From contig CALXRZ010000003.1 of assembly GCA_944391015.1 (NCBI GenBank), positions 1-60,870 on the forward strand: a stretch of DNA of 60,870 nucleotides, read 5' to 3'. Below, in pieces: positions 21,001 through 30,000 of the stretch (position 1 is its first letter; every line of letters begins with the position of its first letter). The position numbers are program-made. Origin of the DNA: an uncultured Clostridia bacterium (GTDB lineage Bacteria; Bacillota; Clostridia; TANB77; CAG-508).

Positions 21001-24000
21001 ATAAGGTTTGTACAATATATTTAATTTTATAAATATATGTGCTTTCAATCTGCATTATTTAATCATAATTTAATTGTATAATATGCCAAATTCTAATTCC
21101 AATCAATTATGTCGTATTTATATAAAACTAAATCTCCTCCAATGTTATTCTTCCTATTTTTCCACTTCTAAAATCGTCTAGTATAATTTTTGCTACTTTC
21201 TCTTCGTCAATATTTCCTCCAGATATTAGTGCTCCTCTTCTCTTTCCTATTAAATGCATTACTTCAAGCACTTTTTCATTTTCTGCAATATCCATATTAT
21301 TTATTTCTTCAAGTTCATTAGGAGTTAATTTATATCTTTCCATCAATTTATTTAAATGCTTATTTATTAGTACCCTTAGCAAATTAAAGCCAATTTCTAT
21401 TGTTTCAAGCACATCATCTTTTATGCTTCCTGTATATGCTAAATTTAGTGCCACTTCTTCACTTTGGAATTTTGGCCATAGCACTCCTGGTGTATCAAGC
21501 AATTCTATGTTTTGATTTATTCGTATCCATTGTTTTTGTCTAGTTACACCTGGTTTATTTCCAACTGTTGCAGAATTCTTTTTAGATATACGATTTATAA
21601 AAGAAGATTTTCCTACATTTGGAATGCCAAGTACCATAACTCTAATTGCTTTTCCTATTCTTCCTTTATTTTCATATTGACTTTTTCCACTACTATATAC
21701 CTCTTCTATCTTGCTAATTGCTTTATTTATTCCCTCTCCTGAGTTTGAATTTACTAGCACTGCCTCTATACCACTTTCTTTAAAATGCTCTATCCATTTA
21801 GCGTTTTGCTTTTCATCTGCTAAGTCATATTTGTTTAGAACAATAACTTTCTTTTTGTTCTTTGTATATTCAGCTATATCAGGGTTTCTACTAGATATTG
21901 GTATACGGGCATCTAATATTTCTACTACTACATCTATTAGTTTTAAATCTTCTATTATTTGCTTTTTCGTTTTTGCCATATGTCCTGGATACCAGTTGAT
22001 ATTCATTTTATTTTCATTCATTATTTTCACTCTTTCTTTTTTCTACATTGCCATTATTATATCACATTTATGTTTTTTTATAAAGTCAATTGTTTCAATA
22101 AATGGTACATAAGCATATATAATTAAACTATTTGCTTCTTTCTTTTAAAATACCTCTATTAAACATTTCCATTACCAATTCTAAATTCCTAATTTTATCA
22201 TCATTTTCTGAAGTACTTTCAAAATTTTCATTATTTTCATATAATCTATTCAATTCAGTTTGAACTTGATTTTTATAATAATAATTTTTTATATTCAAAT
22301 CAGTTTTTATTTTAAGGTATGCTTTATAAAAAGCTTTCGGATAATGTACCTTAAACCATGCAATTCTAAATGCATTCATTGTGCATCCTATTGCATGAGC
22401 TTTAGGAAACATATATTTTATCTTTTCAGCACTTTCTATATACCATTCTGGAATATTATGTTTTTTAAGTAATGTTTTATACTCTTTCCATTTAATATTC
22501 ATTTCCCTATATCTATTTTGATTGTGTGTCCATAGATTCACTCGCCCTTTTCTAATAAATTCAACAATATCAAAAGCTGTAGATTTTTCTATTCCATGAT
22601 TTACTAAATAATTAAACATATCAGCTCTATTTGAAATGACCTCATCTACTCGTTTATGTTTATTTTCTATTAAAAAAGATGCATTATTATTCCAAGTGCA
22701 TGTACCATGAAAAAGAGCCGAAATACAAACCAGATCATTAAAATTACATGGTTTTTTTGTTGTTTCTATCATTTTTTGAACAAAGGGGTTTCCAAACTCT
22801 GGAATACCATTTGTACTAATTGGATATGATTTATCATTTGCATGTAAAAACATCTTTAATGTTTCTTTATCATTAAGATCAATATTCTTTGAATTTATTT
22901 TTGTTTCTTTTTCCAATTCATGTATCAAGCTTAAATCATCATTGCTTAACAAATCAAATTTATATAATCCCAAATTCCAAAGTGTATGATAGTCATAATG
23001 CGTTTTTATATGCCCTTTATTTCCAATTTCTGTCGGACAAAAATTCAATATCTCCGATTCTTCAGAAGTTATAAAAACTCCATCCAAATTTTCTCCAGTA
23101 CATTTTTTCACTTCAAATAATTTACCTATGATTGTTTCCTTGTCAGAAGTATTCTTTATTCCAAGTATATCAACATATTCATTGTAAGACTCTTCTATTA
23201 TCTTACCTGTTAATGTTTCTATTGTTCCTCCACATATTATTTTATCTTTACCATATTTTTTTTGAAGATATGTAAATATTTTTTCTTGTATTTTTCTAGA
23301 AAAAGTTAAGTTTATATCAGGCTCTTTTGCATAATCTTTTCCTGCAAAAAATTCAAAAGGAAGATTGTATTGTATAGGATTAATATCTGTAATTTCTAAT
23401 AAATATGCTACAAGTGAATTTCCTACACTCCCTCTACAACCTACTTTGTATCCTAACTTTTTTGAATAATCTACAAGTTCACTTGAGATTAAATATATAC
23501 TTGCAAAATTATTTATTTCAATAGAGTGTAATTCTAACTTTAATCTTTCTTCAATTTCTTTTGGCAATCTTTCACCATATATTTCTTTTACTTTTTTATA
23601 ACATTTTTGTGAAATAGTATTTGTTGCAAATTCTATCTTAGGATACGTAATCTTGTATGGCATTACATTAATATTCTTTATTTGTTCCGATATTTTTATA
23701 GGATTATTTATTACAATGTCTTCTGAATTTTCTATATAATTAAAACAACTTAATAGTTCAGCCGTAGTTTGAAAATATTTTGTATTTCCTAATTTAATAT
23801 TAGCACTTTTTTTATAAATATTTAATATTTCATTGCATCTATAGTCATTTTTATTAATAAAATTACATTCTGATGTTCCTATAAGCATTTTATTATATCT
23901 TTTACATAATTTACCAATTTTTATGTTTACATTTTTGTCGCTCTCATTTGGTTCAATTCCAATAAAATCATAAAAATCTATTATGGAATTAATATTTTTA

Positions 24001-27000: not shown

Positions 27001-30000
27001 TCATTTGCTTCATTATCTCTGGAACATCTCTAAAGCTTGTATTCTCATTTAATGTTATTCTTCCACTTTCAATATCTCTCCAAGTATTATTTTTTAATTT
27101 TATTTCTCCTTTAAAATACTTACTTAAAAATATAATAGGAGAGTCTTCAGGTAATTTATTTGTATATAGTTCAAGTTCTTTTTCATTAAAGACATCTACA
27201 TGACAACCTTCATCAAAACTATTATGATTAACTATAACTCCATAAGAATTTCTAAAAAACTTTCGATTTTTTACTTTGTGAGGAATATCTGTTATTACAT
27301 GTAATTTATCATAAAAATTATAATCTCCTAGATGACTATCATAATCTTTTTTTATTTTTACAATATCTCCTTTTTTAAATTTTGTACCTGCAGATGGATT
27401 TATATAATCTTCGTAATCCATCATTACTTTTTGTTCACGTTTTTTTCCGTTATAACTAAAAATATATACCCCCGAAATATAAATCTCTTTTCCGTTATAA
27501 TCAAAGCAATGTTCAATTTTAGCTGGTGTTAGATTGCTACAATATAAATTCAGTTCATTTTCTAACCATATTTCTCCTACTTGTTTTGCTAATTCTAAAC
27601 TTGAATATACATTTTCATAGTGATGTTCGTAATTGTTAAAATTAAACATTACTTGTAATAGGTTAATTTTACTCATCTTTTTCTATCTCCTAATTTTCAA
27701 TATCAATATATTTATAAAATTATTCTTCCACACTGTTTTCATCCTTTTGTTTTAATTTTTTAATATCTCCATCTGAAAATCCTGCTAATTTTAAACCTTC
27801 TTCTGTATACCAATTTCCAATATATTTTCTATCCTCTATCTTAAATTCTTCATAAGCATCTAAAAATAGTTCTAACGATATTTTATTTTTCATCAAACTA
27901 CTTATAGCTTTAAGTCTTGTGCTATTAGTTCATCTATTTCTTTGTATGTTTTCACTATATTATTTTTTGTAGCTATATAATTATCCCATTTTCGTGTAGA
28001 TTCATAGTATGCATTAAAGAAATGAACCACATTTTCTTCCTGCTTTAAGAAATTCGTTTTTAAATCTTGTAGTCTTTTTATTTCATCACTTATTAGTTTT
28101 CTTACACTATCATAATGTTTGCAGTTTATTCTTTTTATTACCTCCATATCTGGATAATTTTTTATTAGATTTTTATATATGCTTATTTTTTCATCAATGC
28201 TCATTCTTTTATTTCTATAAACTAAAACTGCTAATTCTTCTGTATTGAATTTATGCTTTATTTTTCGACAATAATTTCCAATAGATAGTGAATTTATTAA
28301 ATCATATTCATCTAATATTTTTTCTTCTGTGTCATTTATTTTCTTTTCTATCATAGCATTTTTCAAATTATATCAACTCCTATACTTTCTTATAAAACAT
28401 TTAATTATAAAGCTTATTATTTTTATTAAATGCACTTAACGACTTAAAATTGTTTTCCTGTTATAACACCAAAAAAAGATAACTAATACATTTTAATTAT
28501 ATTAGCTATCTTTTTTATATACAATATGCGTGGTCAAGTATTGTATTCTTGTTTAAGTAAATTTAGTATATAACAATTTACAATTTAAATTTTTTAGAGA
28601 ATAAGTATATATTTTTTTATTTACTTGTATCTTTTTTCAGCATCTTCAATTACTTTCTTTATTTCGCTAACTAGGCTCTCTGGCTTCTTTATTGTTACCA
28701 TATCCAAGTTTCTCATTGTCCATAATTTAAAGCCTAAAGGATTTGCCTTTATTTTCATTATAAATTTTTTCTTGTTTATTGGAATTACTTCTAGTTTTTT
28801 TCCAAACTTTTCATACACTTCACCTAATAAGTATTCATCACATTCAGCCTCTATTTCTACTTCATTTCCACTAAATACTTCTACTGAGGTTTCTACGTAT
28901 TCTTCTATCTCTTTTTCTGTTTTTGTAATTTCCACTTTTTCTTGTAACTCTGTTAAATTTTTTATTCTATCTAATCTATAATGGAAAAACTCTTCATTGC
29001 CATCTTTTATTCCCAGCATATAAAATTGTTGTTTATCATACAAGATTGCATAAGGAGATACAACTGGTTTACTTACTATTTGTTTTTTTATTCTATCTCC
29101 CTCTATACAGTATTTCCAATATTCAAATTTCACTTTGTTTTTATTAGCAATACTATTAGAAATATCCTCTATGTTTTTTATTACCTCTATATTACTTGTC
29201 CTACCTTTTGGTGAATATATACGATAGTTTTTTAGTTTTTCGTTTTCATATATATTTTGTAAATTTTTGCACTTTTCTATTATTGCTTTTGATAGTTTTT
29301 CTTCAATGAATGTCGAATAACTAAAGGTATCTATAATTGCTCTTATCTCTCCCGGCTCGAAATCAGTTTCTGGGTCATTGTTTATATAGTAGCCTTCTTT
29401 GTTATCATTATATGTGCTTATGTCATAGCCAAATTTTTGTTGTAGTAAAATAATGTTTCTTCTTATTGTTCGTGTGTCTATTTCTACATTGTACTCGTCT
29501 ATTATTTTATCTCTTATTTGTTGTGTTGATAGTTTGTGTTGCTCATCAGTATATTTTTTTAATATATTTAGTATGTATAATATGTTTCCATTTTTTTCAT
29601 ATAATTCCATAACTTTATCTCCGATTCTAATTATTATTTATAACTCTCTTAACAAATACATTTTTCTTTTTAGAATTTTAATCTTTATTTGCTTAAAAAA
29701 ATTCAAAATGATATCTTGTTATAATAAGCATTATCAAATAAATTTTCATTTTTTTATCTTCTATACACCTTATAATTTTACAAAACTTATATATAATTTA
29801 TGATTTTTTATTAAGTATTTTTATAGCATTTATAAATTTTATTTCTATATCTTCTCTTAATTTATCATTAATATTATCATAATGTTGATTATGTAATGTA
29901 TCTAAAAAATCCTCATAGTATTTATAAAATAAATCATTTTTTAATCTAATATCATTTTTATATGCTTTGAAAAAATTATATAAATCATCATAAGTAATAA

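Follow-up and report, generated by a model that had tools for sequence, protein, structure and literature searches.

Several described bacterial systems resemble, in one part or another, the gene cluster considered here, which occupies positions 22128 to 29610 of a 60,870-nt contig from an uncultured Clostridia bacterium (GenBank assembly GCA_944391015.1, contig CALXRZ010000003.1; the whole stretch is called the window below). Among them are the vWA-MoxR-VMAP ternary conflict systems, a computational prediction by Kaur, Burroughs, Iyer and Aravind (2020, eLife; PMC7159879), the sections of which relied on here describe AAA+ proteins paired with cellular modules acquired "typically in inactive form", including MinD/ParA, FtsK and rarely FtsZ, and propose a dominant-negative action. 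The present cluster and its relatives share with that part of the account a set of variable modules drawn from cellular subsystems, some with lost residues (PolC, DnaB, DnaA, FtsZ and FtsK), a patchy distribution and an association with defence genes. They differ in that no vWA, MoxR or VMAP protein was detected, the vWA and MoxR families being absent from the Pfam matches of the island proteins and the AAA+ protein being of CbbX/SpoVK type; the constant parts here are two unnamed families (fam340 and h229), the captured proteins are those of replication, a WYL regulator is present and the module is hosted by gut Clostridia with small genomes. WYL-regulated defence operons, such as those of BrxR with BREX and of CapW with CBASS, form a second group. 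As in those operons, a WYL gene comes first in an operon of co-oriented accessory genes that lies within a defence island; unlike in them, the downstream genes match no system of PADLOC version 2, and control by the WYL protein is putative. We tentatively favour the reading that a conflict module not described before, linked to a WYL regulator and built on shortened paralogues of essential cellular machines, is present here as a partly decayed copy; such a module would probably be anti-phage or abortive-infection in nature. The preliminary description of this DNA had likewise not recognised the combination as a described system, and the literature, subscription journals lying outside the search, yielded no account of this gene set.

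The window corresponds to contig C3 in a metagenome-assembled genome (MAG) of 1.51 Mb and roughly 85% completeness, which encodes its own full PolC, DnaE and DnaB elsewhere. Six co-oriented open reading frames (ORFs) lie on the minus strand within 22128-29610, at the positions assigned to them in the preliminary description, and the cluster stands next to rbgA. That description had reported no primase, integrase or phage structural gene nearby, and the Pfam scans of the window agree: none of the three was found among the ORFs scanned (12 + 14 + 25 ORFs, namely all those of at least 100 aa beyond 17.9-48.6 kb and, within that interval, the main ones), nor was an SSB or a recombinase. The features of the cluster are as follows.

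28621..29610, minus strand: WYL-domain regulator, 329 aa (Pfam WYL), the first gene in the cluster
27902..28366, minus strand: h154, a 154-aa ORF and pseudogene fragment (fam340 profile), with the N-terminal helical domain
27723..27929, minus strand: out-of-frame C-terminal fam340 remnant (fam340 profile), in another frame than h154
26987..27676, minus strand: h229, a 229-aa ORF of a family of about 290 aa, with an in-frame deletion of 61 codons
26182..26985, minus strand: DnaB ATPase domain without the N-terminal domain (NTD), 267 aa (Pfam DnaB_C)
24492..26063, minus strand: CbbX/SpoVK/EccA-type AAA+ ATPase, 523 aa (Pfam AAA and AAA_lid_6), active module 250-510
24419..24483, no strand: 65-nt copy of the h229 3' end, just upstream of the polymerase gene (repeat search and cross-matches to the related locus L010)
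22128..24416, minus strand: exonuclease-less PolC core, 762 aa, with PHP, palm and fingers and the triad D-N-D
21128-22030: rbgA, adjoining the polymerase end of the cluster

Two of these proteins are clear homologues of replisome components (568.7 bits for the polymerase against a PolC model, 246.7 bits for the DnaB-like protein), the polymerase clade adjoining PolC itself. Unlike DnaB, the island homologue is without NTD, arginine finger and RESG loop. It matches Pfam DnaB_C at 246.7 bits over profile positions 2-255, and TIGR00665 at 252.3 bits, against a cut-off of 385.25, over model positions 179-433 only. In the alignment with the genome's own DnaB, to which it is 43% identical, the protein keeps RPAMGKT (Walker A), IIDYLQL (Walker B), the glutamate of the SLE motif (SLENS) and SQLSR, and has KNKKG for the KxRxG finger and SDSKYG at the RESG loop; the motif changes quoted in the preliminary description, together with the retention of Walker A and B, are exact. 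We take the roles of the KxRxG finger and of the RESG DNA-binding loop to be those assigned from the Bst DnaB structures. The same pattern is found throughout a family of NTD-less DnaB_C proteins, stable at about 275 aa and comprising at least 120 clusters at 90% identity, in which only 3 of the 120 have R at the arginine-finger column and none has it at the RESG column, IIDYLQL is exact in 100 and SQLSR in 92, and Walker A and the SLE glutamate are kept. The loss of finger and loop is a stable family-wide change and no local accident, which argues for ATP binding by DnaB_C and against its action as a hexameric helicase that translocates.

The polymerase is matched by the Pfam models PHP (68.7 bits), DNA_pol3_alpha (156.9) and finger (63.7), remains below the PolC cut-offs (568.7 against 873 for NF001688 and 531.5 against 1043.45 bits for TIGR01405) and is 39% identical to the genome's own PolC. 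Unlike PolC, it has neither N-terminal/OB region, exonuclease insert, C-terminal tail nor PHP ligands, and the window copy is also short of one catalytic aspartate. Its start corresponds to residue ~261 of the genome's own PolC; the exonuclease insert of ~200 residues is gone between residues 69 and 81, which correspond to residues 328 and 540 of that PolC; neither RNase_T nor OB was matched in the Pfam search, and the last ~90 residues of PolC are absent from the family. The His/Asp/Cys columns that are invariant in the PHP domain of PolC are kept in none of the 77-80 family members, the motif ELHxHTxMS of PolC having become ELCCHTKMS. A PolC core had been recognised in the preliminary description, which missed two further changes: PDINLTFS stands for the PDIDLNFS of PolC, leaving the triad D-N-D, and GENLDG replaces GQHPGG. 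Both are common to the clade of the window copy (4 clusters). The palm triad residues are presumed catalytic after E. coli DnaE D401/D403/D555. The family, whose homologues are 45-94% identical, forms a single clade beside PolC in a FastTree phylogeny, and the triad has been lost in 16 of the 74 family rows on that tree, by 11 changes of which at least 8 are forced by well-supported branches; several other members carry internal deletions in the palm region. Among 35 other PolC-like rows (P0087-P0120 and the own PolC), 31 have the triad DDD. A second set of exonuclease-less PolC-like proteins, 700-835 aa long (P0087-P0093, P0110 and P0113), keeps the canonical ELHxHTKMS and is distinct from the island family; one of its members is named "PHP domain-containing protein" and comes from Oscillospiraceae.

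This anatomy also recalls the ImuA-ImuB-DnaE2 system, in which a proofreading-less C-family polymerase and a RecA-fold accessory protein likewise stand together in an accessory cassette, and the cluster might be a damage-tolerance cassette of that kind under WYL control. The polymerase has no exonuclease and, in most of the family, an intact triad; its RecA-fold partner has an altered ATPase; and PafBC and DriD, which are WYL regulators, govern responses to damage. We nevertheless consider this explanation very improbable. Unlike the known cassette, the cluster has a PolC-derived polymerase, for which the DnaE2 model NF004225 gives 156.9 bits against a cut-off of 939; the Pfam scans gave no match to a Y-family (ImuB-like) protein in the window; the regulator is a WYL protein and not LexA, with inducibility that is putative; the neighbours of related loci are of restriction type; and neither the FtsZ, DnaA and FtsK pieces found in relatives nor the polymerase-less loci L021 and L022 fit such a function.

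The two remaining ORFs, for neither of which a Pfam family was found above cut-off, had been described as two hypotheticals; both ORFs are present, but h154 is a broken fragment of a larger gene and h229 a form with a deletion of 61 codons. A profile of 334 positions, here named fam340, was built from 69 proteins of ~340 aa. Its positions 2-127 are matched by h154 (E 1.6e-45) and its positions 279-333 by a 69-codon frame at 27723-27929 (E 7.6e-12). In L010, a locus of another Bacillota MAG that is the closest relative and is counted with L011 as one MAG locus, the fam340 gene is spread over three frames by a TAA stop and a frameshift, and the window is without ~449 bp of the gene that L010 keeps at 5871-6319. 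Because of the N-terminal match, the out-of-frame remnant, the broken gene of L010 and the loss of ~449 bp, h154 is the head of a pseudogene.

The family to which h154 belongs is large. With the h154 profile, 836 representative clusters were found at E <=0.001 and 173 at E <=1e-10 (1.84 billion searched), the commonest form being a protein of 320-360 aa with the domain at its N-terminus; the domain is placed in fusion with the polymerase, after DnaB_C, or at the N-terminus of the ~340-aa proteins. No Pfam, NCBIfam or PADLOC model covers fam340, the Pfam scan having comprised 32 of the matching proteins (all the longer ones and a sample of the ~340-aa form), and a look-up of its clusters returned no names beyond "hypothetical protein". 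Its spread across genomes is thin and patchy: with the source genome counted in both cases, 6 genomes among 300 from the class and 2 among the 401 sampled from the phylum carry it. In an AlphaFold2 model from 72 sequences (pLDDT 90.4, pTM 0.87) the N-domain is helical and is accompanied by an alpha/beta domain, a small barrel and helices at the C-terminus; the h154 domain modelled alone, from 7 sequences, reached a pLDDT of 56. A likeness of h154 to the DnaB NTD or to the C-terminal domain of DnaG had been considered and was set aside, and the full fam340 model is that of a larger protein with several domains. The fam340 model gave no Foldseek match in the PDB at E <=0.001, and in a wide structural search the best Z was 6.6, which is below background; the similarity of residues 201-305 to HspQ (5ycq; Z 6.3) only suggests an SH3-like barrel. 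The fam340 and h229 profiles found nothing meaningful among PDB sequences, and in the ESM Atlas fam340 met unnamed clusters only, with scores <=0.78.

The h229 family comprises 94 homologues, well conserved and typically of 277-297 aa. The window protein agrees with the 290-aa form of L010 in all of its first 42 aa and in 185 of the 187 residues that come later, the 61 codons between them having been lost in frame. The C-terminal part of h229 is related to the barrel domain of fam340 (hhalign of alignment A3 against A2, probability 93.6%, E 2e-7), and the gene lies directly upstream of DnaB_C in L010, L013 and L014. A prediction of the complex of DnaB_C with h229 (score 0.01, mark 0.32) counts neither for nor against binding. 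In the numbering of the L010 form, D216, E217, G218, C219 and D222 are invariant and H212 and H220 nearly so, a conserved block that could be a metal or active site. The last 65 nt of the gene recur as a direct repeat, 86% identical (24419-24483 and 26987-27051), which is a rearrangement scar.

These defects raise the question whether the cluster in this genome is mostly gene debris, a dying copy with no present system-level function, whatever role the intact module has in other genomes; this explanation we rate as rather unlikely and, among the rivals to the favoured reading, as the most serious. In L010 a stop and a frameshift interrupt the fam340 gene, which has lost further sequence in the window, h229 has lost its 61 codons, the scar lies upstream of the polymerase gene, and the polymerase has lost GQHPGG and reads D-N-D. 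Measured against the nearest relative, its dN/dS (0.26-0.51) is above that of the WYL gene (0.045, against L010), the value for the DUF2779 gene described below being 0.13; the substitution counts behind these ratios are small. On the other side, the WYL, DnaB_C, AAA+ and polymerase ORFs are all intact, and DnaB_C and the AAA+ protein are near-identical in two genomes, too similar for dN/dS to be judged (1 non-synonymous and 0 synonymous substitutions for DnaB_C, 6 and 2 for the AAA+ gene). The allele also persists and is widespread: in 11 sequencing runs from 9 other studies, for the most part with the label chicken gut or faeces, 0.76-0.94 of the window's sampled words were found. The window copy is nevertheless probably impaired, because fam340 is broken, h229 is deleted and the polymerase reads D-N-D.

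The regulator and the AAA+ ATPase complete the set. The WYL protein is recognised by Pfam WYL (35.7 bits, cut-off 21.8) and by PADLOC WYL profiles at 68.8 and 59.3 bits, one of which aligns residues 14-258; no helix-turn-helix Pfam match was found at E 0.01 and no sequence relative in the PDB. Orthologues of 58-95% identity are present in 9 related loci. The AAA+ protein is matched by Pfam AAA (63.9 bits) and AAA_lid_6 (45.7 bits), and its active module and lid are closely related to CbbX, SpoVK and EccA (E 1e-52 against CbbX of the PDB). Unlike those proteins, it has an extra N-terminal half of ~230 aa and other genomic partners, and it remains below all NCBIfam equivalog cut-offs (spore_V_K, 261 against 422.95; CbbX, 223.8 against 459.25; EccA, 202.7 against 466.65). 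The protein had been described as a double-AAA ATPase. One canonical module of CbbX type is real; the second is weakly supported, the N-terminal ~230 aa matching the start of the canonical module at E 0.002 with the position of Walker A unrecognisable, so that this half is possibly a degenerate AAA domain. Orthologues with 37-99% identity occur in L010, L012, L014, L021, L022, L028 and L031, and PADLOC-DB v2.0.0 gave only weak matches to IetA (34 bits) and TRIP13.

The genes of the cluster recur together in relatives. A scan of species-representative genomes seeded with the polymerase gave 8 loci, 6 of which hold members of the family and come from 5 MAGs. DnaB_C stands beside the polymerase in all four MAGs with at least 9 kb of sequence (L010 with L011, L012, L013 and L014), and the AAA+ and WYL genes are each present in three of these four, the absent ones falling at contig ends. 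The co-occurrence of polymerase, DnaB_C and AAA+ ATPase, for which the preliminary description had proposed a neighbourhood search, is thus found in other Clostridia MAGs and metagenome contigs, with the gene order shuffled between loci. Seeding the metagenome search with the h154 domain alone gave 15 loci of 1.1-20.4 kb, in which there are a DnaB-like gene in 8, a polymerase in 6 (one only 24% identical), WYL in 6, AAA+ in 4, DUF2779 in 3 and none of these in 1; two of the 8 DnaB-like genes (L025 and L030) have canonical motifs. In L028:9140-16544, on a metagenome contig of 821 kb, each of the homologues of DnaB_C, WYL and AAA+ is broken up into several frames, which may reflect either decay or long-read sequencing errors.

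Fusions tie fam340 to the same set of machines. It forms the C-terminus of the polymerase in 66 of 86 clusters, 27 of which add a tail of ~190 aa, and it is also joined to polymerase pieces (P0123, P0130), to the DnaB N-domain (P0126), to the DnaA HTH (P0153), to FtsK with DnaB_C (P0185) and, in a cluster of 24 members from many contigs, to the DnaA ATPase (P0172). DnaB_C is itself fused to the polymerase in P0084 and P0086. The locus L012 encodes a second tubulin-GTPase fragment (868-1530), an FtsZ core without the C-terminal tail (5466-6428; TIGR00065, 371 bits, cut-off 295) and domain III of DnaA alone (7648-8382; 316.5 bits, model positions 102-336), without domains I, II and IV. A rule that every captured paralogue loses a trans-acting catalytic residue was considered and rejected, as the DnaA domain III and the FtsZ of L012 look canonical. 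In L041 and L043, distant fam340 genes (28-36% identity) have a WYL gene and an AAA+ gene of SpoVK-like or FtsH-like type close by, and distant fam340 genes also accompany SLOG, Metallophos, NADAR, Fic and cREC domains. In L041:9139-14889 the distant fam340 is fused to cREC_REC inside an element with integrase and relaxase, and its operon-mates are a CPCC protein, a Metallophos protein, an AAA+ protein with an M41 peptidase domain (IetA-like) and a WYL-WCX regulator.

Varied domains of host machines attached to one constant protein resemble integrated decoys, and the truncated PolC, DnaB, DnaA and FtsZ might be baits that mimic the targets of phage host-takeover inhibitors, the binding of an inhibitor to the mimic being sensed through fam340/h229 and the AAA+ protein and answered by a response. 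That catalysis is dispensable in many members and that the setting is a defence island agree with this explanation, which we regard as unlikely. The conserved core has no recognisable killing or signalling effector, DUF2779, though a frequent neighbour, being no constant one (3 of the 15 h154-seeded loci); and paralogues that are 39-43% identical to the host PolC and DnaB and travel with the island are a poor match for the mimicry of one host. A role as poison subunits or in targeting is ranked slightly above a decoy or sensor mechanism.

The set found in L012 (DnaA domain III, DnaB_C, polymerase and FtsZ) also resembles the tool-kit of a replicon. The cluster could accordingly serve the replication and segregation of a cryptic element that has integrated, with a polymerase, a helicase-like ATPase, a DnaA-like initiator and an FtsZ/TubZ-like partition protein that would replicate the island after its excision. 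The triad is intact in most of the polymerases, the island has moved between genomes and lies at the same rbgA-side site in two of them, and distant fam340 genes occur in the integrase/relaxase element of L041 and in a prophage-like contig (L125). We judge this explanation quite improbable. In searches of 50,697 phage and 72,556 plasmid records the best matches of the polymerase, 30-34% identical, were ordinary PolC, and fam340 had no tblastn match; in IMG/VR the h154 alignment and the polymerase each found 0 relatives and DnaB_C nothing above 41% identity. No prophage or plasmid replication module was recognised, and family-level relatives are absent from the phage, plasmid and IMG/VR searches. 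Primase, SSB, integrase and recombinase are not in the window, and at least 8 separate losses of the triad have occurred. A conflict module fits better than a replicon because DnaB_C is without NTD, arginine finger and DNA-binding loop, and so without what a helicase needs, and because the DnaA paralogue, having no domains I, II and IV, is without those for DNA binding and helicase loading; the many losses of the triad, the shuffling of parts and their fusion to one constant protein, and the restriction-type neighbours count in the same direction.

The island itself is set off from its surroundings. GC content is ~0.24 across 22-35 kb against ~0.30 in the flanks, and the rest of the 60.9-kb contig is chromosomal by its Pfam matches (RelA/SpoT, RecJ, HisRS, SpoIIP, a sigma factor, RuvX and others). 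Compared with L010/L011, the island proteins are 86-100% identical, and the flanking rbgA and mini-RNase III only 55-61%; the island abuts rbgA in both genomes, and L011:1186-4366 holds an AAA_5 ATPase and a LlaJI-type endonuclease between polymerase and rbgA where the window, at 22031-22127, has none. Synonymous divergence from L010/L011 is a mosaic, with dS of ~0 for DnaB_C and AAA+, 0.05-0.09 for polymerase and h154, and 0.53-0.58 for WYL and DUF2779. By these comparisons of sequence the cluster clearly belongs to a horizontally moving island. The dN/dS values, which range from 0.045 to 0.51 where they can be judged, are not near 1. A scan of the window for promoters and terminators in this AT-rich DNA stayed at chance level (69 found, 69.0 expected). 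A tmRNA gene (tag ADNNRELAYAA) and a tRNA-Glu(CTC) lie at 19960-20518, two genes from the island (mini-RNase III and rbgA stand between), and no integrase or attachment repeat was seen. Elsewhere on the contig, at 53070-53816, a stand-alone RNase_T/DnaQ-like exonuclease of 248 aa is encoded.

Beyond the WYL gene the island continues with the following genes.

29798..31206, minus strand: two island genes without a family, 347 aa and 87 aa, which are a single 459-aa ORF in L010
31218..32714, minus strand: DUF2779 protein (Pfam DUF2779, 158.5 bits)
32867..35365, minus strand: 832-aa protein at the far end of the low-GC island

The first two genes are 38-39% identical to the 459-aa ORF at L010:2757-4136 and have a weak match to the PADLOC candidate PDC-S26 (31.8 bits). 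The DUF2779 protein, whose gene recurs next to the module, has orthologues of 59-86% identity in L010, L014, L021, L026 and L031. The DUF2779 family is read, in the passages of the two sources that bear on it, as a Cas4-like PD-(D/E)XK nuclease with an RNase H-like 3'-5' exonuclease (PMC13621843, PMC3985635). The 832-aa protein had no Pfam, PHROG, PADLOC or NCBIfam match; in L014 and L031, GmrSD-type proteins sit in its place. Defence-type neighbours of the related loci include, besides GmrSD (L014, L031), McrBC (L030) and AAA_5 with LlaJI (L011), and there are further an HNH protein (L013), a PDC-S02 candidate (L021) and an IS3 transposase (L014).

The anatomy, residue losses, fusions, co-occurrence and island context are observed in these loci. 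Where relatives are intact, the module comprises the WYL protein, the CbbX/SpoVK-type AAA+ ATPase, fam340 as the constant novel protein, h229 as a second protein with a barrel, and core-only paralogues of essential machines; the paralogues are an exonuclease-less PolC usually fused to fam340 and a DnaB ATPase domain without NTD and finger, joined in some loci by DnaA domain III and an FtsZ core. As to regulation, binding partners and outcome, we infer the following course. The WYL protein would keep the operon held back until the cell met a cue from a phage or from DNA damage, upon which the truncated paralogues would join the replisome or divisome of the host, or that used by the phage, or compete with it, as defective subunits; fam340 and h229 would couple the paralogues to the AAA+ protein, which would remodel the poisoned assembly, so that replication and division halt.

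Several observations weigh against this favoured reading of the region as a decayed conflict module. The palm triad is DDD in 62 of the 86 polymerase-family clusters, and by eye the DnaA domain III of L012 keeps the box VII arginines and its FtsZ core the GGGTGTG motif and ND; "dead subunits" are for this reason no general rule. In L021 and L022, fam340, AAA+ and DUF2779 occur with no polymerase or DnaB within 10 kb, which makes the paralogues optional parts. In PADLOC-DB v2.0.0, searched in releases up to 2023, neither the polymerase, h154 and h229 nor any of six fam340 proteins found a match. A defence role is accordingly drawn from context only, as no model matches polymerase, fam340 or h229. 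Two IMG/VR contigs carry distant fam340 genes, and in one of them (L125) a tandem pair stands beside a module of DUF2800, Enc34-SSB, PolA (a family A polymerase) and a serine recombinase; some relatives thus reside on mobile elements and could serve the element and not the host. The same stretch, L125:33-12417, also holds a polymerase-finger fragment, SLOG and Metallophos. Lastly, repeated triad loss, internal deletions and frame breaks can equally be read as the decay of a dispensable cassette.

The preliminary description had proposed a candidate anti-phage or damage-response system in which replisome mimics act as decoys or sensors and are remodelled by the AAA+ protein. Its view of the polymerase and DnaB_C as non-replicating homologues has gained support from the loss of finger and loop, the triad losses, the fusions, the FtsZ and DnaA pieces and the defence neighbours, and the core proteins match no system-specific profile of PADLOC-DB v2.0.0. 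Its interpretation as a whole is partly supported: the comparisons of gene neighbourhood, selection and mobile elements did not refute it, decoys or sensors remodelled by the AAA+ protein remain a putative mechanism, and it had missed the degeneracy of the window copy.

Whether the loci represent a new class of conflict system is a further and more doubtful proposal. In such a class the cell's own essential machines would be mimicked, an adaptor of unseen fold (fam340/h229) would work with a CbbX-type AAA+ protein, and the cores of PolC, DnaB, DnaA, FtsZ and FtsK would be interchangeable poison subunits or baits under WYL control. If this is true, the class would offer a modular means of guarding replication and division, or of shutting them down, in the course of an infection, and the loci would be a test case for the prediction, so far computational, that conflict systems acquire inactive cellular modules. 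They would add to the known protein families a large unnamed one (836 representative clusters) with a confidently predicted structure and no fold match, and would supply natural dominant-negative or bait versions of PolC, DnaB, DnaA and FtsZ that may be usable as tools. For annotation, the names "DNA polymerase III alpha" and "replicative helicase" in such islands should not be taken to denote replisome genes. If the proposal holds, bacteria would repeatedly have drawn cut-down forms of their replicative polymerase and helicase, of their initiator and of a division protein into a module that is both mobile and regulated, a new means to stop or monitor replication and division in conflict with phages.

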